From the NCBI GenBank assembly GCA_051362555.1, contig CM120643.1, positions 13,676,644 through 13,740,643 on the forward strand: DNA of 64,000 nt, written 5' to 3'. The notes below the pieces were generated by a model that was not told the DNA's origin, did not search any database, and worked only from the letters and a program-made list of their open reading frames with translations. This document shows positions 14,430 through 41,381 of the stretch, piece by piece; the stretch's first letter is position 1; the number at the start of each line of letters is the position of its first letter. Source of the DNA: Lingula anatina. Taxonomy: Eukaryota > Animalia > Brachiopoda. The translations under genes and the position numbers were made by a program.

Positions 14430-14610
14430 GGTTTCGTTCGTCAAATCAGAGTTAAATCTGTTGTATATTTACATTGGGTTGTCACACTTTAAAAAAACTC
14501 AATGTGACAACCTGGAAACAAAAAAAAATGTAATATAATTAGTGTTTTGTATTGTGGAAGGTATTTTAAAAAGAAAGACACATTATATGGAGAATCATAC
14601 ATATACATGG

Positions 14611-18730: not shown

Positions 18731-18789
18731 GGACTGGTTGCAGAAAGCGCTTTTCGGTCAACAAGTGACCTTCATCAGCTGCAGAGTCC
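18731..18789 (-). ncRNA. Minimal type I hammerhead ribozyme (further minus-strand copies at 21304-21362, 23877-23935, 26450-26508, 32328-32386, 34901-34959; core-mutant copy at 29023-29081)
   Basis: Reverse complement reads GGACU-C-UGCAG CUGAUGA A GGUCA cuugu UGACC GAA AAGCGCUU U^ CUGCA-ACC-AGUCC. Confidence 0.88.
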
Positions 18790-19611: not shown

Positions 19612-19627
19612 GGCCCTGAAAAGGGCC
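19612..19627 (-). terminator. Histone-type mRNA 3' stem-loop downstream of the 209-aa ORF (present after all nine ORF copies)
   Basis: Reverse complement AAAAAC-GGCCCTTTTCAGGGCC-ACCCA. Confidence 0.8.
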
Positions 19628-19664
19628 GTTTTTTTCCGAGGACGTAGAAGCAGTGGCTTCTATT

Positions 19665-20294
19665 TTACAGTGTAGTTTTCTTGGCTGAGGTTAGTCTTCG
19701 TTTCACTTTGCTGGCTAGCACGCGGCTCTTCTTCTTGTCCTTCATGGCGAGAATGAGGAGTCTCATTTGCTCCATGATCTGGTTGTTTGTGGTCGTTGAA
19801 GTAGAGGGTTGGTTTCCTGGCGTGTACACGCCGTGGATGTTGAAGTGCTCTTCCGCCCTGGATTCCCTCTCTTCTGCCTTTGCTAAGCTTTCCTTAGCTT
19901 TGTCTACGAAAGCTTGCGTGTGGGCCTCGATCGCGGATTTAAGCTCTGTTGCGGCCTTGTCTTGTATGTTGATCATTGCTGCCAGAAGGATGTCGTCATC
20001 AGGGCACCCCCTGAAGTCTACACGGCATCTGACATGGTGGGCGTTGTTGCTGAGTTGTGTGAGCATGTGGTCTGCCCAGTCAGAGCAGCCTTTCAGGTAA
20101 GCTTTTGCTCTGACGACTTCGTCGTGGTAGGGGTTGCCGTTGACTCCTGGGGGGCCGGCTGTAATTGGCGCCGGTCTCTTGGGGATTCTCCCCCTGGGTG
20201 GTGCAGTGCTATGCCAGTTTTTTGATTCCATATTTCTAGGTTTTTTCCATTCCCTAGGAGATCGTTTTCCTCTGATACTTGTTTGATGATACAT
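19665..20294 (-). CDS. 209-aa element-encoded protein, copy 1 (basic N- and C-termini, helical core)
   Basis: Longest ORF of the unit, ATG start, same strand as the ribozyme, upstream CCAAT/TATA-like motifs, downstream histone stem-loop. Confidence 0.7.
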   Translation of the reverse strand: MYHQTSIRGKRSPREWKKPRNMESKNWHSTAPPRGRIPKRPAPITAGPPGVNGNPYHDEVVRAKAYLKGCSDWADHMLTQLSNNAHHVRCRVDFRGCPDDDILLAAMINIQDKAATELKSAIEAHTQAFVDKAKESLAKAEERESRAEEHFNIHGVYTPGNQPSTSTTTNNQIMEQMRLLILAMKDKKKSRVLASKVKRRLTSAKKTTL

Positions 20295-22237
20295 AGTGAG
20301 CGCGTTGTGAAAGAAATTGCTGTATTGCCAGACTTATGCCTTCCATTGAGAGTGTGCTGCTTTAAGTGTACACCCTGCTGAGGGGAGCACCGACGTTAAG
20401 GAGCTATGTGGTGTTGTGTGCTTCCCGTTGATTCTAAAAGTGTGTCATTAAGGAGCTTTGTGATTGGCTGATTGTCAAGCCATTGTCCGGTGTCTTATGT
20501 CTTGACTATTCAAGAATGTATGCACAGAATCCCCCGACAAGTGTAAATTTTGGTTTTAGTGGTTGTTTGTCAGGTTTTCTTGGTTATTACTATTGTTCCC
20601 TAGTGAGTAATAGGAACGTAGTTGTCTCGCCTACGTGGTATGTGATTATCATTATCATATGTCCGTGTATTATGGTACATAGATCATTTTGTTCCTTGTG
20701 ATCCGTAGGTTAAGGCGTGTTCCGATAAAGCAGAAAAAACCCCGTCACGCCAGTACCCAAAACACTAGCTACAAAGTAACCAGTGTTAAGGGACGGTTCC
20801 CGGTTCGGACAGTCCCACATTGCGGCCGGCCCCAGGGCCAAATAGCTTAAGTGTTGGGGGTGGTGGGCTCATGACCTAGTTAGATTCCACTTTACCAGAA
20901 TAACACGATTCAGAGCTGGGCCTCTGAGGACGTGTATTTTTACAGCGCCCCTTGCAGAGTAGACAGCGGCTCTTAGAGTGTGTTAGGCTTTTCGCCTTTA
21001 TTATGAGAACCACTTGTCTTTGATAGGAAGGTAGGTGTCTCGCCTGCCTGGTATGAGATACATAGTCATTTATATATGTAGGGTGCCCTGAAAAGGACAT
21101 TCCGTGCTGAGTAGAGAGCGACTCTTAGAGTGTGTTAGGCTTCTCGCCTTTATTATAGGGAAAGAACGTCTTTATAAGAGAGTAGGTGTCTCGCCTACTT
21201 CGTATGAGATTTATAGATACCGATCTACACTGGGGGCCCTGAAAAGGGCATTTCGTGATTGGCACAATAGAGGCGTCTCGCCTGTCGAGGGAAGGGGGAG
21301 GGTGGACTGGTTGCAGAAAGCGCTTTTCGGTCAACAAGTGACCTTCATCAGCTGCAGAGTCCGATTAATAAAAAAAAGGAAAAATTTAGGGACGTAGGGG
21401 CTGGTAAGCAAAGGTGTCTCGCCTTTGTTTAGTAAGTTTTCATCAATGGTGTCTCGCCATTGTGAATGATACGGGCCATCTCGGCTTTTAAGTATCATGC
21501 TTTGTTTAGTGATTTTCATCAATGGTGTCTCGCCATTGTGAATGATACGAGCCATCTCGGCTTTATAGTATCATGCTTGATCACAAGTGTCTCGCTTGTG
21601 TCAAAGTGGACGGTATGAATCGAGCGTGTGAATGGCTCAAGAGTCGGAGGTCGACTGAGGATTTGTTGAAATTGTGTCAAATCGAGATCGAGGCCGCGAT
21701 CTGATTGGTTGTTTCAGTTATGAGTTTTGATTGGCTGTTCTCGTGGTGTATCTTGATCCTATCTGTTTAGATGTAGTTTATTTGGTTTCATTTTTGGCAA
21801 GGTATTTTAACCTCGGATCAAATTTATTAGTATTCTTATGCTGTGCATTTGCGTGTTAACACTGAATTTTCATTTGCTAGGATGGTCTGTATAGGTTTCG
21901 GGCACCTCTTTTAATTTTGGAAGGCTTTCTCCTTGTTGCTTATAAATAAACTGAGATATCATCTCGCCTTTTATTTGCGATGTTTGTGTCTTATAAGTCG
22001 ATTGTGCCCTGTAAGTGTTTAAAATTTGGTCTAAATGAGATTATGGCATTTTGCTTTATCTCCAGAATGACTTTTCTTTTCTTTATTGATTATTAATAAG
22101 TGTGGGGAAGGCATCTCGCCTTTTATTTGCATTATTGCGCTCTATTTGAACATTCAGGTTTAGCTTTTCCTGGTAGAAATGGGTGGCCCTGAAAAGGGCC
22201 GTTTTTTTCCGAGGACGTAGAAGCAGTGGCTTCTATT

Positions 22238-22867
22238 TTACAGTGTAGTTTTCTTGGCTGAGGTTAGTCTTCGTTTCACTTTGCTGGCTAGCACGCGGCT
22301 CTTCTTCTTGTCCTTCATGGCGAGAATGAGGAGTCTCATTTGCTCCATGATCTGGTTGTTTGTGGTCGTTGAAGTAGAGGGTTGGTTTCCTGGCGTGTAC
22401 ACGCCGTGGATGTTGAAGTGCTCTTCCGCCCTGGATTCCCTCTCTTCTGCCTTTGCTAAGCTTTCCTTAGCTTTGTCTACGAAAGCTTGCGTGTGGGCCT
22501 CGATCGCGGATTTAAGCTCTGTTGCGGCCTTGTCTTGTATGTTGATCATTGCTGCCAGAAGGATGTCGTCATCAGGGCACCCCCTGAAGTCTACACGGCA
22601 TCTGACATGGTGGGCGTTGTTGCTGAGTTGTGTGAGCATGTGGTCTGCCCAGTCAGAGCAGCCTTTCAGGTAAGCTTTTGCTCTGACGACTTCGTCGTGG
22701 TAGGGGTTGCCGTTGACTCCTGGGGGGCCGGCTGTAATTGGCGCCGGTCTCTTGGGGATTCTCCCCCTGGGTGGTGCAGTGCTATGCCAGTTTTTTGATT
22801 CCATATTTCTAGGTTTTTTCCATTCCCTAGGAGATCGTTTTCCTCTGATACTTGTTTGATGATACAT
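22238..22867 (-). CDS. 209-aa element-encoded protein, copy 2
   Basis: Translation identical to copy 1. Confidence 0.7.
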   Translation of the reverse strand: MYHQTSIRGKRSPREWKKPRNMESKNWHSTAPPRGRIPKRPAPITAGPPGVNGNPYHDEVVRAKAYLKGCSDWADHMLTQLSNNAHHVRCRVDFRGCPDDDILLAAMINIQDKAATELKSAIEAHTQAFVDKAKESLAKAEERESRAEEHFNIHGVYTPGNQPSTSTTTNNQIMEQMRLLILAMKDKKKSRVLASKVKRRLTSAKKTTL

Positions 22868-24810
22868 AGTGAGCGCGTTGTGAAAGAAATTGCTGTATTG
22901 CCAGACTTATGCCTTCCATTGAGAGTGTGCTGCTTTAAGTATACACCCTGCTGAGGGGAGCACCGACGTTAAGGAGCTATGTGGTGTTGTGTGCTTCCCG
23001 TTGATTCTAAAAGTGTGTCATTAAGGAGCTTTGTGATTGGCTGATTGTCAAGCCATTGTCCGGTGTCTTATGTCTTGACTATTCAAGAATGTATGCACAG
23101 AATCCCCCGACAAGTGTAAATTTTGGTTTTAGTGGTTGTTTGTCAGGTTTTCTTGGTTATTACTATTGTTCCCTAGTGAGTAATAGGAACGTAGTTGTCT
23201 CGCCTACGTGGTATGTGATTATCATTATCATATGTCCGTGTATTATGGTACATAGATCATTTTGTTCCTTGTGATCCGTAGGTTAAGGCGTGTTCCGATA
23301 AAGCAGAAAAAACCCCGTCACGCCAGTACCCAAAACACTAGCTACAAAGTAACCAGTGTTAAGGGACGGTTCCCGGTTCGGACAGTCCCACATTGCGGCC
23401 GGCCCCAGGGCCAAATAGCTTAAGTGTTGGGGGTGGTGGGCTCATGACCTAGTTAGATTCCACTTTACCAGAATAACACGATTCAGAGCTGGGCCTCTGA
23501 GGACGTGTATTTTTACAGCGCCCCTTGCAGAGTAGACAGCGGCTCTTAGAGTGTGTTAGGCTTTTCGCCTTTATTATGAGAACCACTTGTCTTTGATAGG
23601 AAGGTAGGTGTCTCGCCTGCCTGGTATGAGATACATAGTCATTTATATATGTAGGGTGCCCTGAAAAGGACATTCCGTGCTGAGTAGAGAGCGACTCTTA
23701 GAGTGTGTTAGGCTTCTCGCCTTTATTATAGGGAAAGAACGTCTTTATAAGAGAGTAGGTGTCTCGCCTACTTCGTATGAGATTTATAGATACCGATCTA
23801 CACTGGGGGCCCTGAAAAGGGCATTTCGTGATTGGCACAATAGAGGCGTCTCGCCTGTCGAGGGAAGGGGGAGGGTGGACTGGTTGCAGAAAGCGCTTTT
23901 CGGTCAACAAGTGACCTTCATCAGCTGCAGAGTCCGATTAATAAAAAAAAGGAAAAATTTAGGGACGTAGGGGCTGGTAAGCAAAGGTGTCTCGCCTTTG
24001 TTTAGTAAGTTTTCATCAATGGTGTCTCGCCATTGTGAATGATACGGGCCATCTCGGCTTTTAAGTATCATGCTTTGTTTAGTGATTTTCATCAATGGTG
24101 TCTCGCCATTGTGAATGATACGAGCCATCTCGGCTTTATAGTATCATGCTTGATCACAAGTGTCTCGCTTGTGTCAAAGTGGACGGTATGAATCGAGCGT
24201 GTGAATGGCTCAAGAGTCGGAGGTCGACTGAGGATTTGTTGAAATTGTGTCAAATCGAGATCGAGGCCGCGATCTGATTGGTTGTTTCAGTTATGAGTTT
24301 TGATTGGCTGTTCTCGTGGTGTATCTTGATCCTATCTGTTTAGATGTAGTTTATTTGGTTTCATTTTTGGCAAGGTATTTTAACCTCGGATCAAATTTAT
24401 TAGTATTCTTATGCTGTGCATTTGCGTGTTAACACTGAATTTTCATTTGCTAGGATGGTCTGTATAGGTTTCGGGCACCTCTTTTAATTTTGGAAGGCTT
24501 TCTCCTTGTTGCTTATAAATAAACTGAGATATCATCTCGCCTTTTATTTGCGATGTTTGTGTCTTATAAGTCGATTGTGCCCTGTAAGTGTTTAAAATTT
24601 GGTCTAAATGAGATTATGGCATTTTGCTTTATCTCCAGAATGACTTTTCTTTTCTTTATTGATTATTAATAAGTGTGGGGAAGGCATCTCGCCTTTTATT
24701 TGCATTATTGCGCTCTATTTGAACATTCAGGTTTAGCTTTTCCTGGTAGAAATGGGTGGCCCTGAAAAGGGCCGTTTTTTTCCGAGGACGTAGAAGCAGT
24801 GGCTTCTATT

Positions 24811-25440
24811 TTACAGTGTAGTTTTCTTGGCTGAGGTTAGTCTTCGTTTCACTTTGCTGGCTAGCACGCGGCTCTTCTTCTTGTCCTTCATGGCGAGAAT
24901 GAGGAGTCTCATTTGCTCCATGATCTGGTTGTTTGTGGTCGTTGAAGTAGAGGGTTGGTTTCCTGGCGTGTACACGCCGTGGATGTTGAAGTGCTCTTCC
25001 GCCCTGGATTCCCTCTCTTCTGCCTTTGCTAAGCTTTCCTTAGCTTTGTCTACGAAAGCTTGCGTGTGGGCCTCGATCGCGGATTTAAGCTCTGTTGCGG
25101 CCTTGTCTTGTATGTTGATCATTGCTGCCAGAAGGATGTCGTCATCAGGGCACCCCCTGAAGTCTACACGGCATCTGACATGGTGGGCGTTGTTGCTGAG
25201 TTGTGTGAGCATGTGGTCTGCCCAGTCAGAGCAGCCTTTCAGGTAAGCTTTTGCTCTGACGACTTCGTCGTGGTAGGGGTTGCCGTTGACTCCTGGGGGG
25301 CCGGCTGTAATTGGCGCCGGTCTCTTGGGGATTCTCCCCCTGGGTGGTGCAGTGCTATGCCAGTTTTTTGATTCCATATTTCTAGGTTTTTTCCATTCCC
25401 TAGGAGATCGTTTTCCTCTGATACTTGTTTGATGATACAT
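24811..25440 (-). CDS. 209-aa element-encoded protein, copy 3
   Basis: Translation identical to copy 1. Confidence 0.7.
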   Translation of the reverse strand: MYHQTSIRGKRSPREWKKPRNMESKNWHSTAPPRGRIPKRPAPITAGPPGVNGNPYHDEVVRAKAYLKGCSDWADHMLTQLSNNAHHVRCRVDFRGCPDDDILLAAMINIQDKAATELKSAIEAHTQAFVDKAKESLAKAEERESRAEEHFNIHGVYTPGNQPSTSTTTNNQIMEQMRLLILAMKDKKKSRVLASKVKRRLTSAKKTTL

Positions 25441-27383
25441 AGTGAGCGCGTTGTGAAAGAAATTGCTGTATTGCCAGACTTATGCCTTCCATTGAGAGTG
25501 TGCTGCTTTAAGTATACACCCTGCTGAGGGGAGCACCGACGTTAAGGAGCTATGTGGTGTTGTGTGCTTCCCGTTGATTCTAAAAGTGTGTCATTAAGGA
25601 GCTTTGTGATTGGCTGATTGTCAAGCCATTGTCCGGTGTCTTATGTCTTGACTATTCAAGAATGTATGCACAGAATCCCCCGACAAGTGTAAATTTTGGT
25701 TTTAGTGGTTGTTTGTCAGGTTTTCTTGGTTATTACTATTGTTCCCTAGTGAGTAATAGGAACGTAGTTGTCTCGCCTACGTGGTATGTGATTATCATTA
25801 TCATATGTCCGTGTATTATGGTACATAGATCATTTTGTTCCTTGTGATCCGTAGGTTAAGGCGTGTTCCGATAAAGCAGAAAAAACCCCGTCACGCCAGT
25901 ACCCAAAACACTAGCTACAAAGTAACCAGTGTTAAGGGACGGTTCCCGGTTCGGACAGTCCCACATTGCGGCCGGCCCCAGGGCCAAATAGCTTAAGTGT
26001 TGGGGGTGGTGGGCTCATGACCTAGTTAGATTCCACTTTACCAGAATAACACGATTCAGAGCTGGGCCTCTGAGGACGTGTATTTTTACAGCGCCCCTTG
26101 CAGAGTAGACAGCGGCTCTTAGAGTGTGTTAGGCTTTTCGCCTTTATTATGAGAACCACTTGTCTTTGATAGGAAGGTAGGTGTCTCGCCTGCCTGGTAT
26201 GAGATACATAGTCATTTATATATGTAGGGTGCCCTGAAAAGGACATTCCGTGCTGAGTAGAGAGCGACTCTTAGAGTGTGTTAGGCTTCTCGCCTTTATT
26301 ATAGGGAAAGAACGTCTTTATAAGAGAGTAGGTGTCTCGCCTACTTCGTATGAGATTTATAGATACCGATCTACACTGGGGGCCCTGAAAAGGGCATTTC
26401 GTGATTGGCACAATAGAGGCGTCTCGCCTGTCGAGGGAAGGGGGAGGGTGGACTGGTTGCAGAAAGCGCTTTTCGGTCAACAAGTGACCTTCATCAGCTG
26501 CAGAGTCCGATTAATAAGAAAAAGGAAAAATTTAGGGACGTAGGGGCTGGTAAGCAAAGGTGTCTCGCCTTTGTTTAGTAAGTTTTCATCAATGGTGTCT
26601 CGCCATTGTGAATGATACGGGCCATCTCGGCTTTTAAGTATCATGCTTTGTTTAGTGATTTTCATCAATGGTGTCTCGCCATTGTGAATGATACGAGCCA
26701 TCTCGGCTTTATAGTATCATGCTTGATCACAAGTGTCTCGCTTGTGTCAAAGTGGACGGTATGAATCGAGCGTGTGAATGGCTCAAGAGTCGGAGGTCGA
26801 CTGAGGATTTGTTGAAATTGTGTCAAATCGAGATCGAGGCCGCGATCTGATTGGTTGTTTCAGTTATGAGTTTTGATTGGCTGTTCTCGTGGTGTATCTT
26901 GATCCTATCTGTTTAGATGTAGTTTATTTGGTTTCATTTTTGGCAAGGTATTTTAACCTCGGATCAAATTTATTAGTATTCTTATGCTGTGCATTTGCGT
27001 GTTAACACTGAATTTTCATTTGCTAGGATGGTCTGTATAGGTTTCGGGCACCTCTTTTAATTTTGGAAGGCTTTCTCCTTGTTGCTTATAAATAAACTGA
27101 GATATCATCTCGCCTTTTATTTGCGATGTTTGTGTCTTATAAGTCGATTGTGCCCTGTAAGTGTTTAAAATTTGGTCTAAATGAGATTATGGCATTTTGC
27201 TTTATCTCCAGAATGACTTTTCTTTTCTTTATTGATTATTAATAAGTGTGGGGAAGGCATCTCGCCTTTTATTTGCATTATTGCGCTCTATTTGAACATT
27301 CAGGTTTAGCTTTTCCTGGTAGAAATGGGTGGCCCTGAAAAGGGCCGTTTTTTTCCGAGGACGTAGAAGCAGTGGCTTCTATT

Positions 27384-28013
27384 TTACAGTGTAGTTTTCT
27401 TGGCTGAGGTTAGTCTTCGTTTCACTTTGCTGGCTAGCACGCGGCTCTTCTTCTTGTCCTTCATGGCGAGAATGAGGAGTCTCATTTGCTCCATGATCTG
27501 GTTGTTTGTGGTCGTTGAAGTAGAGGGTTGGTTTCCTGGCGTGTACACGCCGTGGATGTTGAAGTGCTCTTCCGCCCTGGATTCCCTCTCTTCTGCCTTT
27601 GCTAAGCTTTCCTTAGCTTTGTCTACGAAAGCTTGCGTGTGGGCCTCGATCGCGGATTTAAGCTCTGTTGCGGCCTTGTCTTGTATGTTGATCATTGCTG
27701 CCAGAAGGATGTCGTCATCAGGGCACCCCCTGAAGTCTACACGGCATCTGACATGGTGGGCGTTGTTGCTGAGTTGTGTGAGCATGTGGTCTGCCCAGTC
27801 AGAGCAGCCTTTCAGGTAAGCTTTTGCTCTGACGACTTCGTCGTGGTAGGGGTTGCCGTTGACTCCTGGGGGGCCGGCTGTAATTGGCGCCGGTCTCTTG
27901 GGGATTCTCCCCCTGGGTGGTGCAGTGCTATGCCAGTTTTTTGATTCCATATTTCTAGGTTTTTTCCATTCCCTAGGAGATCGTTTTCCTCTGATACTTG
28001 TTTGATGATACAT
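27384..28013 (-). CDS. 209-aa element-encoded protein, copy 4
   Basis: Translation identical to copy 1. Confidence 0.7.
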   Translation of the reverse strand: MYHQTSIRGKRSPREWKKPRNMESKNWHSTAPPRGRIPKRPAPITAGPPGVNGNPYHDEVVRAKAYLKGCSDWADHMLTQLSNNAHHVRCRVDFRGCPDDDILLAAMINIQDKAATELKSAIEAHTQAFVDKAKESLAKAEERESRAEEHFNIHGVYTPGNQPSTSTTTNNQIMEQMRLLILAMKDKKKSRVLASKVKRRLTSAKKTTL

Positions 28014-30289
28014 AGTGAGCGCGTTGTGAAAGAAATTGCTGTATTGCCAGACTTATGCCTTCCATTGAGAGTGTGCTGCTTTAAGTATACACCCTGCTGA
28101 GGGGAGCACCGACGTTAAGGAGCTATGTGGTGTTGTGTGCTTCCCGTTGATTCTAAAAGTGTGTCATTAAGGAGCTTTGTGATTGGCTGATTGTCAAGCC
28201 ATTGTCCGGTGTCTTATGTCTTGACTATTCAAGAATGTATGCACAGAATCCCCCGACAAGTGTAAATTTTGGTTTTAGTGGTTGTTTGTCAGGTTTTCTT
28301 GGTTATTACTATTGTTCCCTAGTGAGTAATAGGAACGTAGTTGTCTCGCCTACGTGGTATGTGATTATCATTATCATATGTCCGTGTATTATGGTACATA
28401 GATCATTTTGTTCCTTGTGATCCGTAGGTTAAGGCGTGTTCCGATAAAGCAGAAAAAACCCCGTCACGCCAGTACCCAAAACACTAGCTACAAAGTAACC
28501 AGTGTTAAGGGACGGTTCCCGGTTCGGACAGTCCCACATTGCGGCCGGCCCCAGGGCCAAATAGCTTAAGTGTTGGGGGTGGTGGGCTCATGACCTAGTT
28601 AGATTCCACTTTACCAGAATAACACGATTCAGAGCTGGGCCTCTGAGGACGTGTATTTTTACAGCGCCCCTTGCAGAGTAGACAGCGGCTCTTAGAGTGT
28701 GTTAGGCTTTTCGCCTTTATTATGAGAACCACTTGTCTTTGATAGGAAGGTAGGTGTCTCGCCTGCCTGGTATGAGATACATAGTCATTTATATATGTAG
28801 GGTGCCCTGAAAAGGACATTCCGTGCTGAGTAGAGAGCGACTCTTAGAGTGTGTTAGGCTTCTCGCCTTTATTATAGGGAAAGAACGTCTTTATAAGAGA
28901 GTAGGTGTCTCGCCTACTTCGTATGAGATTTATAGATACCGATCTACACTGGGGGCCCTGAAAAGGGCATTTCGTGATTGGCACAATAGAGGCGTCTCGC
29001 CTGTCGAGGGAAGGGGGAGGGTGGACTGGTTGCAGAAAGCGCTATTCGGTCAACAAGTGACCTTCATCAGCTGCAGAGTCCGATTAATAAAAAAAAGGAA
29101 AAATTTAGGGACGTAGGGGCTGGTAAGCAAAGGTGTCTCGCCTTTGTTTAGTAAGTTTTCATCAATGGTGTCTCGCCATTGTGAATGATACGGGCCATCT
29201 CGGCTTTTAAGTATCATGCTTTGTTTAGTGATTTTCATCAATGGTGTCTCGCCATTGTGAATGATACGAGCCATCTCGGCTTTATAGTATCATGCTTGAT
29301 CACAAGTGTCTCGCTTGTGTCAAAGTGGACGGTATGAATCGAGCGTGTGAATGGCTCAAGAGTCGGAGGTCGACTGAGGATTTGTTGAAATTGTGTCAAA
29401 TCGAGATCGAGGCCGCGATCTGATTGGTTGTTTCAGTTATGAGTTTTGATTGGCTGTTCTCGTGGTGTATCTTGATCCTATCTGTTTAGATGTAGTTTAT
29501 TTGGTTTCATTTTTGGCAAGGTATTTTAACCTCGGATCAAATTTATTAGTATTCTTATGCTGTGCATTTGCGTGTTAACACTGAATTTTCATTTGCTAGG
29601 ATGGTCTGTATAGGTTTCGGGCACCTCTTTTAATTTTGGAAGGCTTTCTCCTTGTTGCTTATAAATAAACTGAGATATCATCTCGCCTTTTATTTGCGAT
29701 GTTTGTGTCCCTCAAGTGTTGGGGGTGGTGGGCTCATGACCTAGTTAGATTCCACTTTACCAGAATAACACGATTCAGAGCTGGGCCTCTGAGGACGTGT
29801 ATTTTTACAGCGCCCCTTGCAGAGTAGACAGCGGCTCTTAGAGTGTGTTAGGCTTTTCGCCTTTATTATGAGAACCACTTGTCTTTGATAGGAAGGTAGG
29901 TGTCTCGCCTGCCTGGTATGAGATACATAGTCATTTATATATGTAGGGTGCCCTGAAAAGGACATTCCGTGCTGAGTAGAGAGCGACTCTTATAGTGTGT
30001 TAGGCTTCTCGCCTTTATTATAGGGAAAGAACGTCTTTATAAGAGAGTAGGTGTCTCGCCTACTTCGTATGAGATTTATAGATACCGATCTACACTGGGG
30101 GCCCTGAAAAGGGCATTTCGTGATTGGCACAATAGAGGCGTCTCGCCTGTCGAGGGAAGGGGGAGGGTGGACTGGTTGCAGAAAGCGCTTTTCGGTCAAC
30201 CCTCAGCAGGGTGTATACTTAAAGCAGCACACTCTCAATGGAAGGCATAAGTCTGGCAATACAGCAATTTCTTTCACAACGCGCTCACT

Positions 30290-30919
30290 ATGTATCATCA
30301 AACAAGTATCAGAGGAAAACGATCTCCTAGGGAATGGAAAAAACCTAGAAATATGGAATCAAAAAACTGGCATAGCACTGCACCACCCAGGGGGAGAATC
30401 CCCAAGAGACCGGCGCCAATTACAGCCGGCCCCCCAGGAGTCAACGGCAACCCCTACCACGACGAAGTCGTCAGAGCAAAAGCTTACCTGAAAGGCTGCT
30501 CTGACTGGGCAGACCACATGCTCACACAACTCAGCAACAACGCCCACCATGTCAGATGCCGTGTAGACTTCAGGGGGTGCCCTGATGACGACATCCTTCT
30601 GGCAGCAATGATCAACATACAAGACAAGGCCGCAACAGAGCTTAAATCCGCGATCGAGGCCCACACGCAAGCTTTCGTAGACAAAGCTAAGGAAAGCTTA
30701 GCAAAGGCAGAAGAGAGGGAATCCAGGGCGGAAGAGCACTTCAACATCCACGGCGTGTACACGCCAGGAAACCAACCCTCTACTTCAACGACCACAAACA
30801 ACCAGATCATGGAGCAAATGAGACTCCTCATTCTCGCCATGAAGGACAAGAAGAAGAGCCGCGTGCTAGCCAGCAAAGTGAAACGAAGACTAACCTCAGC
30901 CAAGAAAACTACACTGTAA
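30290..30919 (+). CDS. 209-aa element-encoded protein, copy 5 (in an inverted partial unit lacking the upstream CCAAT box)
   Basis: Translation identical to copy 1. Confidence 0.65.
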   Translation: MYHQTSIRGKRSPREWKKPRNMESKNWHSTAPPRGRIPKRPAPITAGPPGVNGNPYHDEVVRAKAYLKGCSDWADHMLTQLSNNAHHVRCRVDFRGCPDDDILLAAMINIQDKAATELKSAIEAHTQAFVDKAKESLAKAEERESRAEEHFNIHGVYTPGNQPSTSTTTNNQIMEQMRLLILAMKDKKKSRVLASKVKRRLTSAKKTTL

Positions 30920-30956
30920 AATAGAAGCCACTGCTTCTACGTCCTCGGAAAAAAAC

Positions 30957-30995
30957 GGCCCTTTTCAGGGCCACCCATTTCTACCAGGAAAAGCT
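30957..30995 (+). terminator. Histone-type 3' stem-loop plus candidate purine-rich histone downstream element (also at 38846 and 41419)
   Basis: GGCCCTTTTCAGGGCC at 30957-30972, ACCCA at 30973-30977, CAGGAAAAGCT at 30985-30995. Confidence 0.8.
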
Positions 30996-31794
30996 AAACC
31001 TGAATGTTCAAATAGAGCGCAATAATGCAAATAAAAGGCGAGATGCCTTCCCCACACTTATTAATAATCAATAAAGAAAAGAAAAGTCATTCTGGAGATA
31101 AAGCAAAATGCCATAATCTCATTTAGACCAAATTTTAAACACTTACAGGGCACAATCGACTTATAAGACACAAACATCGCAAATAAAAGGCGAGATGATA
31201 TCTCAGTTTATTTATAAGCAACAAGGAGAAAGCCTTCCAAAATTAAAAGAGGTGCCCGAAACCTATACAGACCATCCTAGCAAATGAAAATTCAGTGTTA
31301 ACACGCAAATGCACAGCATAAGAATACTAATAAATTTGATCCGAGGTTAAAATACCTTGCCAAAAATGAAACCAAATAAACTACATCTAAACAGATAGGA
31401 TCAAGATACACCACGAGAACAGCCAATCAAAACTCATAACTGAAACAACCAATCAGATCGCGGCCTCGATCTCGATTTGACACAATTTCAACAAATCCTC
31501 AGTCGACCTCCGACTCTTGAGCCATTCACACGCTCGATTCATACCGTCCACTTTGACACAAGCGAGACACTTGTGATCAAGCATGATACTATAAAGCCGA
31601 GATGGCTCGTATCATTCACAATGGCGAGACACCATTGATGAAAATCACTAAACAAAGCATGATACTTAAAAGCCGAGATGGCCCGTATCATTCACAATGG
31701 CGAGACACCATTGATGAAAACTTACTAAACAAAGGCGAGACACCTTTGCTTACCAGCCCCTACGTCCCTAAATTTTTCCTTTTTTTTATTAATC

Positions 31795-31853
31795 GGACTC
31801 TGCAGCTGATGAAGGTCACTTGTTGACCGAAAAGCGCTTTCTGCAACCAGTCC
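31795..31853 (+). ncRNA. Minimal type I hammerhead ribozyme (further plus-strand copies at 39684-39742, 42257-42315, 43041-43099)
   Basis: Stem I TGCAG(31801-05)/CTGCA(31841-45) extended by GGACT/AGTCC; core CTGATGA 31806-12; stem II GGTCA/TGACC; GAAA; palindromic stem III AAGCGCTT; predicted cut after 31840. Confidence 0.88.
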
Positions 31854-33261
31854 ACCCTCCCCCTTCCCTTATAAGTGTTGGGGGTGGTGGGCTCATGACC
31901 TAGTTAGATTCCACTTTACCAGAATAACACGATTCAGAGCTGGGCCTCTGAGGACGTGTATTTTTACAGCGCCCCTTGCAGAGTAGACAGCGGCTCTTAG
32001 AGTGTGTTAGGCTTTTCGCCTTTATTATGAGAACCACTTGTCTTTGATAGGAAGGTAGGTGTCTCGCCTGCCTGGTATGAGATACATAGTCATTTATATA
32101 TGTAGGGTGCCCTGAAAAGGACATTCCGTGCTGAGTAGAGAGCGACTCTTAGAGTGTGTTAGGCTTCTCGCCTTTATTATAGGGAAAGAACGTCTTTATA
32201 AGAGAGTAGGTGTCTCGCCTACTTCGTATGAGATTTATAGATACCGATCTACACTGGGGGCCCTGAAAAGGGCATTTCGTGATTGGCACAATAGAGGCGT
32301 CTCGCCTGTCGAGGGAAGGGGGAGGGTGGACTGGTTGCAGAAAGCGCTTTTCGGTCAACAAGTGACCTTCATCAGCTGCAGAGTCCGATTAATAAAAAAA
32401 AGGAAAAATTTAGGGACGTAGGGGCTGGTAAGCAAAGGTGTCTCGCCTTTGTTTAGTAAGTTTTCATCAATGGTGTCTCGCCATTGTGAATGATACGGGC
32501 CATCTCGGCTTTTAAGTATCATGCTTTGTTTAGTGATTTTCATCAATGGTGTCTCGCCATTGTGAATGATACGAGCCATCTCGGCTTTATAGTATCATGC
32601 TTGATCACAAGTGTCTCGCTTGTGTCAAAGTGGACGGTATGAATCGAGCGTGTGAATGGCTCAAGAGTCGGAGGTCGACTGAGGATTTGTTGAAATTGTG
32701 TCAAATCGAGATCGAGGCCGCGATCTGATTGGTTGTTTCAGTTATGAGTTTTGATTGGCTGTTCTCGTGGTGTATCTTGATCCTATCTGTTTAGATGTAG
32801 TTTATTTGGTTTCATTTTTGGCAAGGTATTTTAACCTCGGATCAAATTTATTAGTATTCTTATGCTGTGCATTTGCGTGTTAACACTGAATTTTCATTTG
32901 CTAGGATGGTCTGTATAGGTTTCGGGCACCTCTTTTAATTTTGGAAGGCTTTCTCCTTGTTGCTTATAAATAAACTGAGATATCATCTCGCCTTTTATTT
33001 GCGATGTTTGTGTCTTATAAGTCGATTGTGCCCTGTAAGTGTTTAAAATTTGGTCTAAATGAGATTATGGCATTTTGCTTTATCTCCAGAATGACTTTTC
33101 TTTTCTTTATTGATTATTAATAAGTGTGGGGAAGGCATCTCGCCTTTTATTTGCATTATTGCGCTCTATTTGAACATTCAGGTTTAGCTTTTCCTGGTAG
33201 AAATGGGTGGCCCTGAAAAGGGCCGTTTTTTTCCGAGGACGTAGAAGCAGTGGCTTCTATT

Positions 33262-33891
33262 TTACAGTGTAGTTTTCTTGGCTGAGGTTAGTCTTCGTTT
33301 CACTTTGCTGGCTAGCACGCGGCTCTTCTTCTTGTCCTTCATGGCGAGAATGAGGAGTCTCATTTGCTCCATGATCTGGTTGTTTGTGGTCGTTGAAGTA
33401 GAGGGTTGGTTTCCTGGCGTGTACACGCCGTGGATGTTGAAGTGCTCTTCCGCCCTGGATTCCCTCTCTTCTGCCTTTGCTAAGCTTTCCTTAGCTTTGT
33501 CTACGAAAGCTTGCGTGTGGGCCTCGATCGCGGATTTAAGCTCTGTTGCGGCCTTGTCTTGTATGTTGATCATTGCTGCCAGAAGGATGTCGTCATCAGG
33601 GCACCCCCTGAAGTCTACACGGCATCTGACATGGTGGGCGTTGTTGCTGAGTTGTGTGAGCATGTGGTCTGCCCAGTCAGAGCAGCCTTTCAGGTAAGCT
33701 TTTGCTCTGACGACTTCGTCGTGGTAGGGGTTGCCGTTGACTCCTGGGGGGCCGGCTGTAATTGGCGCCGGTCTCTTGGGGATTCTCCCCCTGGGTGGTG
33801 CAGTGCTATGCCAGTTTTTTGATTCCATATTTCTAGGTTTTTTCCATTCCCTAGGAGATCGTTTTCCTCTGATACTTGTTTGATGATACAT
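33262..33891 (-). CDS. 209-aa element-encoded protein, copy 6
   Basis: Translation identical to copy 1. Confidence 0.7.
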   Translation of the reverse strand: MYHQTSIRGKRSPREWKKPRNMESKNWHSTAPPRGRIPKRPAPITAGPPGVNGNPYHDEVVRAKAYLKGCSDWADHMLTQLSNNAHHVRCRVDFRGCPDDDILLAAMINIQDKAATELKSAIEAHTQAFVDKAKESLAKAEERESRAEEHFNIHGVYTPGNQPSTSTTTNNQIMEQMRLLILAMKDKKKSRVLASKVKRRLTSAKKTTL

Positions 33892-35834
33892 AGTGAGCGC
33901 GTTGTGAAAGAAATTGCTGTATTGCCAGACTTATGCCTTCCATTGAGAGTGTGCTGCTTTAAGTATACACCCTGCTGAGGGGAGCACCGACGTTAAGGAG
34001 CTATGTGGTGTTGTGTGCTTCCCGTTGATTCTAAAAGTGTGTCATTAAGGAGCTTTGTGATTGGCTGATTGTCAAGCCATTGTCCGGTGTCTTATGTCTT
34101 GACTATTCAAGAATGTATGCACAGAATCCCCCGACAAGTGTAAATTTTGGTTTTAGTGGTTGTTTGTCAGGTTTTCTTGGTTATTACTATTGTTCCCTAG
34201 TGAGTAATAGGAACGTAGTTGTCTCGCCTACGTGGTATGTGATTATCATTATCATATGTCCGTGTATTATGGTACATAGATCATTTTGTTCCTTGTGATC
34301 CGTAGGTTAAGGCGTGTTCCGATAAAGCAGAAAAAACCCCGTCACGCCAGTACCCAAAACACTAGCTACAAAGTAACCAGTGTTAAGGGACGGTTCCCGG
34401 TTCGGACAGTCCCACATTGCGGCCGGCCCCAGGGCCAAATAGCTTAAGTGTTGGGGGTGGTGGGCTCATGACCTAGTTAGATTCCACTTTACCAGAATAA
34501 CACGATTCAGAGCTGGGCCTCTGAGGACGTGTATTTTTACAGCGCCCCTTGCAGAGTAGACAGCGGCTCTTAGAGTGTGTTAGGCTTTTCGCCTTTATTA
34601 TGAGAACCACTTGTCTTTGATAGGAAGGTAGGTGTCTCGCCTGCCTGGTATGAGATACATAGTCATTTATATATGTAGGGTGCCCTGAAAAGGACATTCC
34701 GTGCTGAGTAGAGAGCGACTCTTAGAGTGTGTTAGGCTTCTCGCCTTTATTATAGGGAAAGAACGTCTTTATAAGAGAGTAGGTGTCTCGCCTACTTCGT
34801 ATGAGATTTATAGATACCGATCTACACTGGGGGCCCTGAAAAGGGCATTTCGTGATTGGCACAATAGAGGCGTCTCGCCTGTCGAGGGAAGGGGGAGGGT
34901 GGACTGGTTGCAGAAAGCGCTTTTCGGTCAACAAGTGACCTTCATCAGCTGCAGAGTCCGATTAATAAAAAAAAGGAAAAATTTAGGGACGTAGGGGCTG
35001 GTAAGCAAAGGTGTCTCGCCTTTGTTTAGTAAGTTTTCATCAATGGTGTCTCGCCATTGTGAATGATACGGGCCATCTCGGCTTTTAAGTATCATGCTTT
35101 GTTTAGTGATTTTCATCAATGGTGTCTCGCCATTGTGAATGATACGAGCCATCTCGGCTTTATAGTATCATGCTTGATCACAAGTGTCTCGCTTGTGTCA
35201 AAGTGGACGGTATGAATCGAGCGTGTGAATGGCTCAAGAGTCGGAGGTCGACTGAGGATTTGTTGAAATTGTGTCAAATCGAGATCGAGGCCGCGATCTG
35301 ATTGGTTGTTTCAGTTATGAGTTTTGATTGGCTGTTCTCGTGGTGTATCTTGATCCTATCTGTTTAGATGTAGTTTATTTGGTTTCATTTTTGGCAAGGT
35401 ATTTTAACCTCGGATCAAATTTATTAGTATTCTTATGCTGTGCATTTGCGTGTTAACACTGAATTTTCATTTGCTAGGATGGTCTGTATAGGTTTCGGGC
35501 ACCTCTTTTAATTTTGGAAGGCTTTCTCCTTGTTGCTTATAAATAAACTGAGATATCATCTCGCCTTTTATTTGCGATGTTTGTGTCTTATAAGTCGATT
35601 GTGCCCTGTAAGTGTTTAAAATTTGGTCTAAATGAGATTATGGCATTTTGCTTTATCTCCAGAATGACTTTTCTTTTCTTTATTGATTATTAATAAGTGT
35701 GGGGAAGGCATCTCGCCTTTTATTTGCATTATTGCGCTCTATTTGAACATTCAGGTTTAGCTTTTCCTGGTAGAAATGGGTGGCCCTGAAAAGGGCCGTT
35801 TTTTTCCGAGGACGTAGAAGCAGTGGCTTCTATT

Positions 35835-36464
35835 TTACAGTGTAGTTTTCTTGGCTGAGGTTAGTCTTCGTTTCACTTTGCTGGCTAGCACGCGGCTCTT
35901 CTTCTTGTCCTTCATGGCGAGAATGAGGAGTCTCATTTGCTCCATGATCTGGTTGTTTGTGGTCGTTGAAGTAGAGGGTTGGTTTCCTGGCGTGTACACG
36001 CCGTGGATGTTGAAGTGCTCTTCCGCCCTGGATTCCCTCTCTTCTGCCTTTGCTAAGCTTTCCTTAGCTTTGTCTACGAAAGCTTGCGTGTGGGCCTCGA
36101 TCGCGGATTTAAGCTCTGTTGCGGCCTTGTCTTGTATGTTGATCATTGCTGCCAGAAGGATGTCGTCATCAGGGCACCCCCTGAAGTCTACACGGCATCT
36201 GACATGGTGGGCGTTGTTGCTGAGTTGTGTGAGCATGTGGTCTGCCCAGTCAGAGCAGCCTTTCAGGTAAGCTTTTGCTCTGACGACTTCGTCGTGGTAG
36301 GGGTTGCCGTTGACTCCTGGGGGGCCGGCTGTAATTGGCGCCGGTCTCTTGGGGATTCTCCCCCTGGGTGGTGCAGTGCTATGCCAGTTTTTTGATTCCA
36401 TATTTCTAGGTTTTTTCCATTCCCTAGGAGATCGTTTTCCTCTGATACTTGTTTGATGATACAT
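35835..36464 (-). CDS. 209-aa element-encoded protein, copy 7
   Basis: Translation identical to copy 1. Confidence 0.7.
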   Translation of the reverse strand: MYHQTSIRGKRSPREWKKPRNMESKNWHSTAPPRGRIPKRPAPITAGPPGVNGNPYHDEVVRAKAYLKGCSDWADHMLTQLSNNAHHVRCRVDFRGCPDDDILLAAMINIQDKAATELKSAIEAHTQAFVDKAKESLAKAEERESRAEEHFNIHGVYTPGNQPSTSTTTNNQIMEQMRLLILAMKDKKKSRVLASKVKRRLTSAKKTTL

Positions 36465-38003
36465 AGTGAGCGCGTTGTGAAAGAAATTGCTGTATTGCCA
36501 GACTTATGCCTTCCATTGAGAGTGTGCTGCTTTAAGTATACACCCTGCTGAGGGGAGCACCGACGTTAAGGAGCTATGTGGTGTTGTGTGCTTCCCGTTG
36601 ATTCTAAAAGTGTGTCATTAAGGAGCTTTGTGATTGGCTGATTGTCAAGCCATTGTCCGGTGTCTTATGTCTTGACTATTCAAGAATGTATGCACAGAAT
36701 CCCCCGACAAGTGTAAATTTTGGTTTTAGTGGTTGTTTGTCAGGTTTTCTTGGTTATTACTATTGTTCCCTAGTGAGTAATAGGAACGTAGTTGTCTCGC
36801 CTACGTGGTATGTGATTATCATTATCATATGTCCGTGTATTATGGTACATAGATCATTTTGTTCCTTGTGATCCGTAGGTTAAGGCGTGTTCCGATAAAG
36901 CAGAAAAAACCCCGTCACGCCAGTACCCAAAACACTAGCTACAAAGTAACCAGTGTTAAGGGACGGTTCCCGGTTCGGACAGTCCCACATTGCGGCCGGC
37001 CCCAGGGCCAAATAGCTTAAGTGTTGGGGGTGGTGGGCTCATGACCTAGTTAGATTCCACTTTACCAGAATAACACGATTCAGAGCTGGGCCTCTGAGGA
37101 CGTGTATTTTTACAGCGCCCCTTGCAGAGTAGACAGCGGCTCTTAGAGTGTGTTAGGCTTTTCGCCTTTATTATGAGAACCACTTGTCTTTGATAGGAAG
37201 GTAGGTGTCTCGCCTGCCTGGTATGAGATACATAGTCATTTATATATGTAGGGTGCCCTGAAAAGGACATTCCGTGCTGAGTAGAGAGCGACTCTTAGAG
37301 TGTGTTAGGCTTCTCGCCTTTATTATAGGGAAAGAACGTCTTTATAAGAGAGTAGGTGTCTCGCAGCACGGAATGTCCTTTTCAGGGCACCCTACATATA
37401 TAAATGACTATGTATCTCATACCAGGCAGGCGAGACACCTACCTTCCTATCAAAGACAAGTGGTTCTCATAATAAAGGCGAAAAGCCTAACACACTCTAA
37501 GAGCCGCTGTCTACTCTGCAAGGGGCGCTGTAAAAATACACGTCCTCAGAGGCCCAGCTCTGAATCGTGTTATTCTGGTAAAGTGGAATCTAACTAGGTC
37601 ATGAGCCCACCACCCCCAACACTTAAGCTATTTGGCCCTGGGGCCGGCCGCAATGTGGGACTGTCCGAACCGGGAACCGTCCCTTAACACTGGTTACTTT
37701 GTAGCTAGTGTTTTGGGTACTGGCGTGACGGGGTTTTTTCTGCTTTATCGGAACACGCCTTAACCTACGGATCACAAGGAACAAAATGATCTATGTACCA
37801 TAATACACGGACATATGATAATGATAATCACATACCACGTAGGCGAGACAACTACGTTCCTATTACTCACTAGGGAACAATAGTAATAACCAAGAAAACC
37901 TGACAAACAACCACTAAAACCAAAATTTACACTTGTCGGGGGATTCTGTGCATACATTCTTGAATAGTCAAGACATAAGACACCGGACAATGGCTTGACA
38001 ATC

Positions 38004-38112
38004 AGCCAATCACAAAGCTCCTTAATGACACACTTTTAGAATCAACGGGAAGCACACAACACCACATAGCTCCTTAACGTCGGTGCTCCCCTCAGCAGGG
38101 TGTATACTTAAA
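38004..38112 (+). promoter_or_regulatory. Candidate Pol II promoter of the element ORF (CCAAT box plus TATA-like motif)
   Basis: AGCCAATCA at 38004-38012, AGCTCCTTAA twice, TATACTTAAA at 38103-38112, about 70 nt before the ATG at 38179; motif match only. Confidence 0.4.
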
Positions 38113-38178
38113 GCAGCACACTCTCAATGGAAGGCATAAGTCTGGCAATACAGCAATTTCTTTCACAACGCGCTCACT

Positions 38179-38808
38179 ATGTATCATCAAACAAGTATCA
38201 GAGGAAAACGATCTCCTAGGGAATGGAAAAAACCTAGAAATATGGAATCAAAAAACTGGCATAGCACTGCACCACCCAGGGGGAGAATCCCCAAGAGACC
38301 GGCGCCAATTACAGCCGGCCCCCCAGGAGTCAACGGCAACCCCTACCACGACGAAGTCGTCAGAGCAAAAGCTTACCTGAAAGGCTGCTCTGACTGGGCA
38401 GACCACATGCTCACACAACTCAGCAACAACGCCCACCATGTCAGATGCCGTGTAGACTTCAGGGGGTGCCCTGATGACGACATCCTTCTGGCAGCAATGA
38501 TCAACATACAAGACAAGGCCGCAACAGAGCTTAAATCCGCGATCGAGGCCCACACGCAAGCTTTCGTAGACAAAGCTAAGGAAAGCTTAGCAAAGGCAGA
38601 AGAGAGGGAATCCAGGGCGGAAGAGCACTTCAACATCCACGGCGTGTACACGCCAGGAAACCAACCCTCTACTTCAACGACCACAAACAACCAGATCATG
38701 GAGCAAATGAGACTCCTCATTCTCGCCATGAAGGACAAGAAGAAGAGCCGCGTGCTAGCCAGCAAAGTGAAACGAAGACTAACCTCAGCCAAGAAAACTA
38801 CACTGTAA
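38179..38808 (+). CDS. 209-aa element-encoded protein, copy 8
   Basis: Translation identical to copy 1. Confidence 0.7.
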   Translation: MYHQTSIRGKRSPREWKKPRNMESKNWHSTAPPRGRIPKRPAPITAGPPGVNGNPYHDEVVRAKAYLKGCSDWADHMLTQLSNNAHHVRCRVDFRGCPDDDILLAAMINIQDKAATELKSAIEAHTQAFVDKAKESLAKAEERESRAEEHFNIHGVYTPGNQPSTSTTTNNQIMEQMRLLILAMKDKKKSRVLASKVKRRLTSAKKTTL

Positions 38809-40751
38809 AATAGAAGCCACTGCTTCTACGTCCTCGGAAAAAAACGGCCCTTTTCAGGGCCACCCATTTCTACCAGGAAAAGCTAAACCTGAATGTTCAA
38901 ATAGAGCGCAATAATGCAAATAAAAGGCGAGATGCCTTCCCCACACTTATTAATAATCAATAAAGAAAAGAAAAGTCATTCTGGAGATAAAGCAAAATGC
39001 CATAATCTCATTTAGACCAAATTTTAAACACTTACAGGGCACAATCGACTTATAAGACACAAACATCGCAAATAAAAGGCGAGATGATATCTCAGTTTAT
39101 TTATAAGCAACAAGGAGAAAGCCTTCCAAAATTAAAAGAGGTGCCCGAAACCTATACAGACCATCCTAGCAAATGAAAATTCAGTGTTAACACGCAAATG
39201 CACAGCATAAGAATACTAATAAATTTGATCCGAGGTTAAAATACCTTGCCAAAAATGAAACCAAATAAACTACATCTAAACAGATAGGATCAAGATACAC
39301 CACGAGAACAGCCAATCAAAACTCATAACTGAAACAACCAATCAGATCGCGGCCTCGATCTCGATTTGACACAATTTCAACAAATCCTCAGTCGACCTCC
39401 GACTCTTGAGCCATTCACACGCTCGATTCATACCGTCCACTTTGACACAAGCGAGACACTTGTGATCAAGCATGATACTATAAAGCCGAGATGGCTCGTA
39501 TCATTCACAATGGCGAGACACCATTGATGAAAATCACTAAACAAAGCATGATACTTAAAAGCCGAGATGGCCCGTATCATTCACAATGGCGAGACACCAT
39601 TGATGAAAACTTACTAAACAAAGGCGAGACACCTTTGCTTACCAGCCCCTACGTCCCTAAATTTTTCCTTTTTTTTATTAATCGGACTCTGCAGCTGATG
39701 AAGGTCACTTGTTGACCGAAAAGCGCTTTCTGCAACCAGTCCACCCTCCCCCTTCCCTCGACAGGCGAGACGCCTCTATTGTGCCAATCACGAAATGCCC
39801 TTTTCAGGGCCCCCAGTGTAGATCGGTATCTATAAATCTCATACGAAGTAGGCGAGACACCTACTCTCTTATAAAGACGTTCTTTCCCTATAATAAAGGC
39901 GAGAAGCCTAACACACTCTAAGAGTCGCTCTCTACTCAGCACGGAATGTCCTTTTCAGGGCACCCTACATATATAAATGACTATGTATCTCATACCAGGC
40001 AGGCGAGACACCTACCTTCCTATCAAAGACAAGTGGTTCTCATAATAAAGGCGAAAAGCCTAACACACTCTAAGAGCCGCTGTCTACTCTGCAAGGGGCG
40101 CTGTAAAAATACACGTCCTCAGAGGCCCAGCTCTGAATCGTGTTATTCTGGTAAAGTGGAATCTAACTAGGTCATGAGCCCACCACCCCCAACACTTAAG
40201 CTATTTGGCCCTGGGGCCGGCCGCAATGTGGGACTGTCCGAACCGGGAACCGTCCCTTAACACTGGTTACTTTGTAGCTAGTGTTTTGGGTACTGGCGTG
40301 ACGGGGTTTTTTCTGCTTTATCGGAACACGCCTTAACCTACGGATCACAAGGAACAAAATGATCTATGTACCATAATACACGGACATATGATAATGATAA
40401 TCACATACCACGTAGGCGAGACAACTACGTTCCTATTACTCACTAGGGAACAATAGTAATAACCAAGAAAACCTGACAAACAACCACTAAAACCAAAATT
40501 TACACTTGTCGGGGGATTCTGTGCATACATTCTTGAATAGTCAAGACATAAGACACCGGACAATGGCTTGACAATCAGCCAATCACAAAGCTCCTTAATG
40601 ACACACTTTTAGAATCAACGGGAAGCACACAACACCACATAGCTCCTTAACGTCGGTGCTCCCCTCAGCAGGGTGTATACTTAAAGCAGCACACTCTCAA
40701 TGGAAGGCATAAGTCTGGCAATACAGCAATTTCTTTCACAACGCGCTCACT

Positions 40752-41381
40752 ATGTATCATCAAACAAGTATCAGAGGAAAACGATCTCCTAGGGAATGGA
40801 AAAAACCTAGAAATATGGAATCAAAAAACTGGCATAGCACTGCACCACCCAGGGGGAGAATCCCCAAGAGACCGGCGCCAATTACAGCCGGCCCCCCAGG
40901 AGTCAACGGCAACCCCTACCACGACGAAGTCGTCAGAGCAAAAGCTTACCTGAAAGGCTGCTCTGACTGGGCAGACCACATGCTCACACAACTCAGCAAC
41001 AACGCCCACCATGTCAGATGCCGTGTAGACTTCAGGGGGTGCCCTGATGACGACATCCTTCTGGCAGCAATGATCAACATACAAGACAAGGCCGCAACAG
41101 AGCTTAAATCCGCGATCGAGGCCCACACGCAAGCTTTCGTAGACAAAGCTAAGGAAAGCTTAGCAAAGGCAGAAGAGAGGGAATCCAGGGCGGAAGAGCA
41201 CTTCAACATCCACGGCGTGTACACGCCAGGAAACCAACCCTCTACTTCAACGACCACAAACAACCAGATCATGGAGCAAATGAGACTCCTCATTCTCGCC
41301 ATGAAGGACAAGAAGAAGAGCCGCGTGCTAGCCAGCAAAGTGAAACGAAGACTAACCTCAGCCAAGAAAACTACACTGTAA
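40752..41381 (+). CDS. 209-aa element-encoded protein, copy 9
   Basis: Translation identical to copy 1. Confidence 0.7.
   Translation: MYHQTSIRGKRSPREWKKPRNMESKNWHSTAPPRGRIPKRPAPITAGPPGVNGNPYHDEVVRAKAYLKGCSDWADHMLTQLSNNAHHVRCRVDFRGCPDDDILLAAMINIQDKAATELKSAIEAHTQAFVDKAKESLAKAEERESRAEEHFNIHGVYTPGNQPSTSTTTNNQIMEQMRLLILAMKDKKKSRVLASKVKRRLTSAKKTTL

Follow-up and report, generated by a model that had tools for sequence, protein, structure and literature searches.

A histone-type 3' stem-loop ends a non-histone gene in a retrozyme-like, probably Penelope-dependent repeat of Lingula anatina

The window analysed here, a 64,000-nt stretch of the genome of the brachiopod Lingula anatina (assembly GCA_051362555.1, contig CM120643.1), contains a 25.7-kb array of a 2573-bp repeat unit that is flanked by intronless TRPV-like genes of the animal host. 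Four of these ankyrin/ion-transport genes, encoding proteins of 610-635 aa, lie at 5914-7821, 12597-14468 and 47730-49568 (all on the minus strand) and at 52903-54783 (plus strand). Their nearest solved structures are TRPV5/6 and TRPV3, from which they are very divergent; no relative of the TRPV-like protein was found at E 1e-30 among 7994 candidates scored, and the cluster looks like a lineage-specific expansion. A segmental duplication (2309-7803 versus 9278-14423, 79-85% identity) carries two of the genes, and the right flank holds short tandem repeats of 337, 160 and 58 bp at 58826-60463 and 62645-62985. At the left end, the window edge cuts an ORF for a LINE-type reverse transcriptase (RVT_1 plus PF09004), of which the 3' part lies at 3-1226 (+); an enzyme of this kind is not expected to mobilise the 2573-bp element. 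Within the array, one truncated copy of the unit carries the feature on which we concentrate: a short ORF followed by a stem-loop of the type that ends histone mRNAs (Table 1).

Table 1. Positions of the array, of the unit's gene and of its predicted RNA elements in the 64,000-nt window
Feature	Position	Strand	Basis or remark
Array of the 2573-bp unit, seven segments (tandem, 5'-truncated, inverted), both outer ends being the fixed 3' end	17811..43552	.	segment alignment
Segment carrying the finding, inverted and truncated at its 5' end, from unit 933 to 29 of the following lap	30200..31869	+	joined head-to-head to 29714-30200
TATA-like box 76 nt 5' of the ATG, inferred promoter element	30214..30223	+	sequence
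Single-frame ORF, 209 aa from first ATG	30290..30919	+	both ends basic (pI 11.9 and 11.6), middle acidic, one distant homolog (P0001)
Histone-type 26-nt element (A-rich flank, 6-bp stem, 4-nt loop, ACCCA)	30952..30977	+	predicted cut after 30977
Purine-rich candidate histone downstream element, 13-23 nt past the stem	30985..30995	+	sequence
Five AATAAA hexamers 3' of the stem-loop (31030, 31070, 31182, 31329, 31375), possible alternative polyadenylation signals	31030..31380	+	converted from unit positions
Type I hammerhead motif, predicted cut after 31840	31795..31853	+	pairing by sequence; same motif at 39684-39742
Pseudo-LTR, unit 1-466, predicted hammerhead cut to fixed AC-rich 3' end	39730..40195	+	segment alignment
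Second stem-loop-like hairpin, in pseudo-LTR, without ACCCA or purine run	39796..39811	+	first pair mismatched here
Example of the repeated hairpin, constant 7-nt loop on a variable 6-bp stem	39846..39865	+	five per unit, four different stems
Third stem-loop-like hairpin, in pseudo-LTR, one of its 6 pairs being G-U, no ACCCA, no purine run	39947..39962	+	sequence

The seven segments of the array each show 0-3 mismatches to the unit, which we number from the base that follows the predicted hammerhead cut. All but one of them stop at unit 466-469, an AC-rich site that thereby marks a fixed 3' end, and the segment at 17811-18277 is exactly unit 1-466, the stretch between this cut and that end. 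Another segment spans 4.44 laps of the unit, a length that fits a circle or a multimer. Head-to-head junctions occur twice, at 30200 and 37364; at the first, 30200-31869 abuts 29714-30200 in an arrangement that we take to resemble twin priming. The initial annotation of this DNA had assigned the ORF to a mobile element, and the fixed 3' end, the inverted 5'-truncated copies and the pseudo-LTR all bear this out. Because none of the 18 frames of at least 50 aa in one unit, scanned against Pfam, encodes a reverse transcriptase (nor does any encode an endonuclease), the element is non-autonomous. No Penelope-type partner reverse transcriptase lies within the window, and the array ends show no target-site duplication. 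Nor does this single locus show a 30-40 bp tail, a feature described as optional in Penelope-like elements (PMC8557442). A fixed 3' end, a type I hammerhead and a terminal repeat beginning where the hammerhead is predicted to cleave together make up a footprint of Penelope-type copying, and on these sequence features a borrowed Penelope-type reverse transcriptase probably copies the unit. We rejected the idea that the unit was invented by the assembly: of its words, the fraction present in DNA runs of other studies is 0.23 to 0.63, and both contigs and RNA reads align to it. The copy number at this locus could depend on the assembly, and the family appears to be young and high-copy.

The predicted ribozyme has an extended stem I with an internal loop and a 2-bp stem III with a palindromic tetraloop, and all four helices pair; its oddities are a poor UUU triplet and an additional A ahead of stem II. 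A short stem III and a palindromic loop are described as typical of animal type I motifs (PMC4209133, PMC7229834). The motif was not detected by Rfam, and DNA-pattern searches returned 0 matches for the hammerhead and 0 for the hairpin plus loop motif. RNA reads of run X17 that derive from diverged copies match 39682-39745 only, so that the hammerhead stands out as a conserved island. The ribozyme that had been ascribed to the element on first inspection can thus be placed, as a predicted hammerhead, in the very unit that bears the ORF. Just past the fixed 3' end, three stable hairpins occupy 40200-40290 (z about -2 on both strands, no Rfam match), and these may possibly be a structure that is recognised when copying starts internally. 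We also considered a second ribozyme close to this fixed end and rejected it, since the fold there is stable (z about -2) but matches nothing in Rfam.

The gene itself is compact. In full copies of the unit an extra CCAAT lies about 95 nt further upstream of the TATA-like box (for example at 38006), and this is absent from the truncated copy with the finding. Among the ORF variants listed for the last 56 codons, 13 of 21 are synonymous, where 26% would be expected (P about 6e-4, with rows treated as independent), and because of this synonymous excess among diverged copies we consider the ORF very likely to be a real gene. Its 209-aa product belongs to no Pfam family and has no sequence match in the PDB up to E 10. 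The acidic middle is predicted to form two long antiparallel helices (mean pLDDT 64.8, from a 2-sequence alignment), and a single-sequence model of the protein was poor (pLDDT 57). Foldseek with the predicted fold found nothing at E 0.001 or better in the PDB or BFVD, and the best VIA Z, 9.0, was to unrelated coiled coils, a common arrangement. A derived histone or H1-like protein was rejected on the grounds that there is neither a Pfam family nor a PDB sequence match and that the predicted antiparallel helical hairpin is not the histone fold; the view in the initial annotation that the upstream protein is not a histone therefore holds.

The sole homolog of this protein, P0001, was found among 1.84 billion representatives (E 6.2e-07, 29% over 154 aa) and is a singleton on an unrelated 1420-nt contig. 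Further searches gave 0 of 92 candidates for homologs of near length, 0 of 7992 candidates for longer proteins (which is weak evidence), and no usable match in the Atlas; related loci were found in 0 of 78 stretches in viral contigs and 0 of 101 in metagenome contigs. By analogy with the coiled-coil proteins of retrotransposons and with the long helix predicted at the N-terminus of Penelope/Poseidon PAc, the protein is most likely a nucleic-acid-binding oligomer that packages element RNA, and this assignment is the weakest step of the mechanism we propose.

Behind this ORF stands a hairpin of histone type, with a 6-bp stem and a 4-nt loop at 30957-30972. Directly 3' of the stem is ACCCA (30973-30977), followed by 7 nt and then by the purine run; from the TAA stop (30917-30919) there are 37 nt to the first stem base, with the A-rich flank counted. 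All of these elements, first noted from the sequence alone, are at the positions originally given for them. The spacing is histone-like: the 26-nt element begins 32 nt past the stop, and the published range in histone mRNAs is 25-60 nt, with cleavage 5 nt past the stem (10.64898/2026.10.14.759114). The same source lists a G-C second pair and a U at loop position 3 as hallmarks of the histone 3' end (10.64898/2026.10.14.759114); both are present here, behind an ORF that is uninterrupted. The Rfam Histone3 model (RF00032), with which a scan had been suggested, scores the hairpin at 38 bits, above the gathering score of 34 (E 1.5e-07). There are nine Histone3 matches in the window, all of them in copies of one 2573-bp unit; because one unit has been copied nine times, we treat them as a single observation and reject nine independent occurrences. 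A chance hairpin was likewise rejected from shuffle counts: when the unit was dinucleotide-shuffled 3000 times, the strict hairpin pattern arose 0 times, and a looser pattern that the unit contains three times was reached once. Outside the array, the strict pattern has 0 matches in the flanks. The purine run, a candidate downstream element, agrees with the conserved U7 box (PMC5054213) in 4 of 5 positions at best. The motif is a canonical histone-type 3' stem-loop that ends a non-histone gene in a repeat. We favour with moderate confidence the reading that the repeat is a retrozyme-like Penelope parasite that codes for a protein, and that the mRNA of its gene is likely processed by way of SLBP and U7.

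The two further stem-loop-like hairpins of the unit sit in a 151-bp internal duplication of the pseudo-LTR. At position 39811, five of six RNA reads from diverged copies carry the letter that completes the first pair (U-A). Both hairpins are possible SLBP sites without a cleavage signal, and they lend some weight to an alternative that we nevertheless regard as rather unlikely: that SLBP binds the hairpins of the unit, including these two, with no cutting by U7, and is thereby brought to an element RNA, longer or polyadenylated, that is to be exported, stored or translated. That two such hairpins lack ACCCA and a purine run, one of them being a perfect 6-bp stem in diverged copies, speaks for this alternative, and the imperfect match to the U7 box points the same way. 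There is also a precedent in Drosophila oocytes, where SLBP-dependent, U7-independent polyadenylated maternal histone mRNAs are described (PMC11997800). Against it, the 5-nt flank and the purine run are found only at the ORF hairpin, and the run is free of variants among the rows listed in the comparison of diverged copies below.

Hairpins of another kind, with a constant loop, recur through the unit. Besides the tabulated example they are found at 42019-42037, 42081-42099, 42157-42175 and 42192-42210, and in copies of these, and their stems are fully paired. The 7-nt loop motif occurs 11 times per unit in the sense direction versus once in antisense, and at 0.08 per kb in the flanks. Because the loop is constant on four different stems, these hairpins point to a repeated protein-binding site, a candidate target for the element's own protein or for the partner reverse transcriptase.

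Since its young copies are nearly identical, the array alone shows no selection. We compared 38640-39060, which holds another copy of the ORF end and stem-loop, at 80% likeness with contigs from the DNA of two other studies. From run X6, 28 contigs aligned (10 of them under 90% alike), and from run X9, 16 (5 under 90%). Neither the stem-loop (38846-38861) nor 38869-38898 is affected by any of the 40 variant rows listed of 74, and the UTR ahead of the stem-loop has five substitution sites and several indels; within ACCCA, the second base is altered in the commonest family state. In two diverged contigs for which every substitution was placed (14 of 14 and 6 of 6), none lies in the motif (P 0.15 and 0.40). 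In each run there is one contig that agrees with the ORF as far as 38767, then departs from it and agrees once more at the stem-loop, and X9 contig depth is 461 over the hairpin versus 259-289 just upstream. For the listed rows only, and with windows chosen after seeing the data, P is 0.27 for the stem-loop alone and 0.04 for the stem-loop plus purine run with indels counted. No compensatory changes in the hairpin were seen among the diverged contigs. The initial annotation had reasoned that loss of the hairpin in diverged family members would speak against its function; no loss is seen in those 40 rows, and the conservation statistics are modest, and weak taken alone.

Weak statistics and an array without visible selection would also fit an element that had at some time acquired the 3' end of a histone gene and now carried the motif as a functionless passenger, and Penelope-like elements are described as able to carry host sequence in trans (PMC8557442). 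We consider such passive capture improbable. No histone coding remnant is present within the unit, the motif stands at the correct spacing from the stop of an ORF that is under purifying selection, the hairpin forms an island at which diverged contigs match again, and each unit has three such hairpins.

A different origin for the gene would follow if its ORF, promoter and histone-type end had come together from a host non-histone family that already used the pathway, and had then been spread by a retrozyme-like carrier, with the protein playing no role in copying. This explanation shares the SLBP/U7 claim with the one we favour and differs from it on origin and purpose. It would account for the way in which promoter, ORF and stem-loop form a compact module between blocks of element repeats, and for the location of P0001 on an unrelated 1420-nt contig. 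We give it little credence, as stem-loop-like hairpins occur in the pseudo-LTR too, outside the gene module, and as some diverged contigs join the ORF end, the stem-loop and the downstream element sequence.

RNA reads bear on whether transcripts end at the predicted cut. In a first survey of four RNA runs, with 6 to 25 in 100 of each sampled, the ORF had depth in one of the four, the poly(A) run X11, at about 1-5 reads that fell to zero after the bin holding the stem-loop. A second survey, which sampled about 6 in 100 of each run, yielded 2 and 13 reads. The sole X11 fragment spans 38746-38866, unclipped and without poly(A), and ends on the last base of ACCCA, which is the predicted cut; it belongs to a diverged subfamily that is also present in the X9 DNA. 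A pair from run X12 begins at 38865-38871, most simply at 38868, a start that may reflect a reverse-transcriptase stop at the hairpin, which is a known artefact. That one of about eight fragments should end exactly at the cut has a chance of about 2 in 100, and that two ends should fall within 2 nt of it a chance of 1.5 in 100, both calculated post hoc. One X12 read crosses the cut site (to 38882), and reads extend downstream among the five AATAAA hexamers in a poly(A) library. At the sampled depth, neither survey shows a pile-up of RNA ends. All 15 reads have their first mate on the plus strand, which in most stranded libraries corresponds to RNA antisense to the ORF; the strand of the RNA is ambiguous.

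Taken together, the RNA evidence for an end at the U7 cut is suggestive only, and the interpretation offered in the initial annotation is supported in part. The transcript end at ACCCA (30977) that the initial annotation had expected is matched in this second copy by one fragment that ends exactly there, and is opposed by the read that crosses the site and by the downstream reads in a poly(A) library. The presence of such read-through reads in a poly(A) library is compatible with SLBP binding alone, whereas a fragment that ends exactly 5 nt past the stem, with no poly(A) and no clipped letters, argues for cutting.

On the reading that we favour, in which the gene uses SLBP/U7 processing, the hairpin would allow SLBP to bind the gene's mRNA and the U7 snRNP to cut it five bases past the stem, and one unit would give rise to two RNA products. 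The protein would be made from a short mRNA that starts at the internal CCAAT/TATA-like promoter and ends at the stem-loop. A long read-through RNA would be cut by the hammerhead, possibly circularised, and would serve as the template, on which a Penelope-type enzyme acting in trans would begin to reverse-transcribe from the fixed AC-rich site, 466 nt past the hammerhead cut. Cutting at the stem-loop would in this way separate mRNA from template, and it would tie protein output to SLBP-rich cells, such as those in S phase, in the germ line or in the early embryo. The protein, with its basic ends and coiled-coil middle, would package the element RNA, perhaps by way of the constant-loop hairpins. 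More tentatively, and as a possibility that we would not yet call probable, we suggest that a class of coding ribozyme retroelements has captured the SLBP/U7 pathway, that the U7 cut switches between packaging protein and full-length template, and that the extra SLBP-type hairpins route template RNA to replicating or germ-line cells. If this broader proposal were true, one element would be both a coding retrozyme and the source of a non-histone mRNA that is a client of the pathway.

The SLBP/U7 reading, if true, would mean that a selfish element breaks the exclusivity of the stem-loop end to histones and that mobile DNA could time its protein to S phase or oocytes. It would bear on whether this processing works outside histone gene clusters, and retrozymes, described as short non-coding repeats, would come to include coding elements. 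Among the protein-coding mRNAs of metazoans, those of histones are described in PMC5054213 as the only ones with this stem-loop at their end. By title and abstract, the literature yielded no mobile-element or non-histone mRNA with a histone end, a scope outside which most subscription journals and supplements fall. The element's resemblance to the metazoan histone mRNA 3' end (RF00032) extends to the 6-bp stem, the 4-nt loop, the G-C second pair, the U at loop position 3, ACCCA, the purine run, the spacing and the uninterrupted ORF; it differs in that the ORF is non-histone and lies inside a mobile repeat. A link between U7 and mobile DNA has been described in the repression of HERV1/LTR12 by U7 snRNA through HDE-like motifs (10.1101/2023.08.25.554787). 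In that case the effect is transcriptional repression, and the abstract mentions neither a stem-loop nor 3' end formation on element mRNA.

As a retroelement, the unit has its closest counterparts in two known groups. The non-LTR retrozymes of metazoans are described as non-coding repeats of 150-450 bp for which dependence on Penelope has been proposed (PMC7229834; 10.64898/2026.07.22.740005). Like them, it forms tandem units that each carry a type I hammerhead with a short stem III and a palindromic loop, and it has no reverse transcriptase; unlike them, it is 2573 bp long, codes for a 209-aa protein with a synonymous excess, and carries histone-type hairpins. With Penelope-like elements, as described for Penelope/Poseidon PAc (PMC11167929) and in PMC8557442, it shares a pseudo-LTR with a hammerhead, partial tandems, inverted 5'-truncated copies and AT-rich flanks, and it differs in that it lacks both RT and GIY-YIG domains; no 30-40 bp tail is seen at this locus, and the search among longer proteins, which is weak evidence, revealed no homology of its ORF to the N-terminal region of Penelope-like elements. 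Two traits recall PAc in particular, in which reverse transcription is described as initiating internally at an AC-rich site and the N-terminal region is predicted to form a long helix (PMC11167929). The Naiad Penelope-like elements offer a parallel for the use of a specialised host 3'-UTR signal by an element's own ORF, in their case SECIS (PMC8557442); SECIS recodes UGA and forms no 3' ends, and Naiads are autonomous and without canonical hammerheads. The present case brings together, in one unit, a gene, a predicted hammerhead, a Penelope footprint and a histone-type end.
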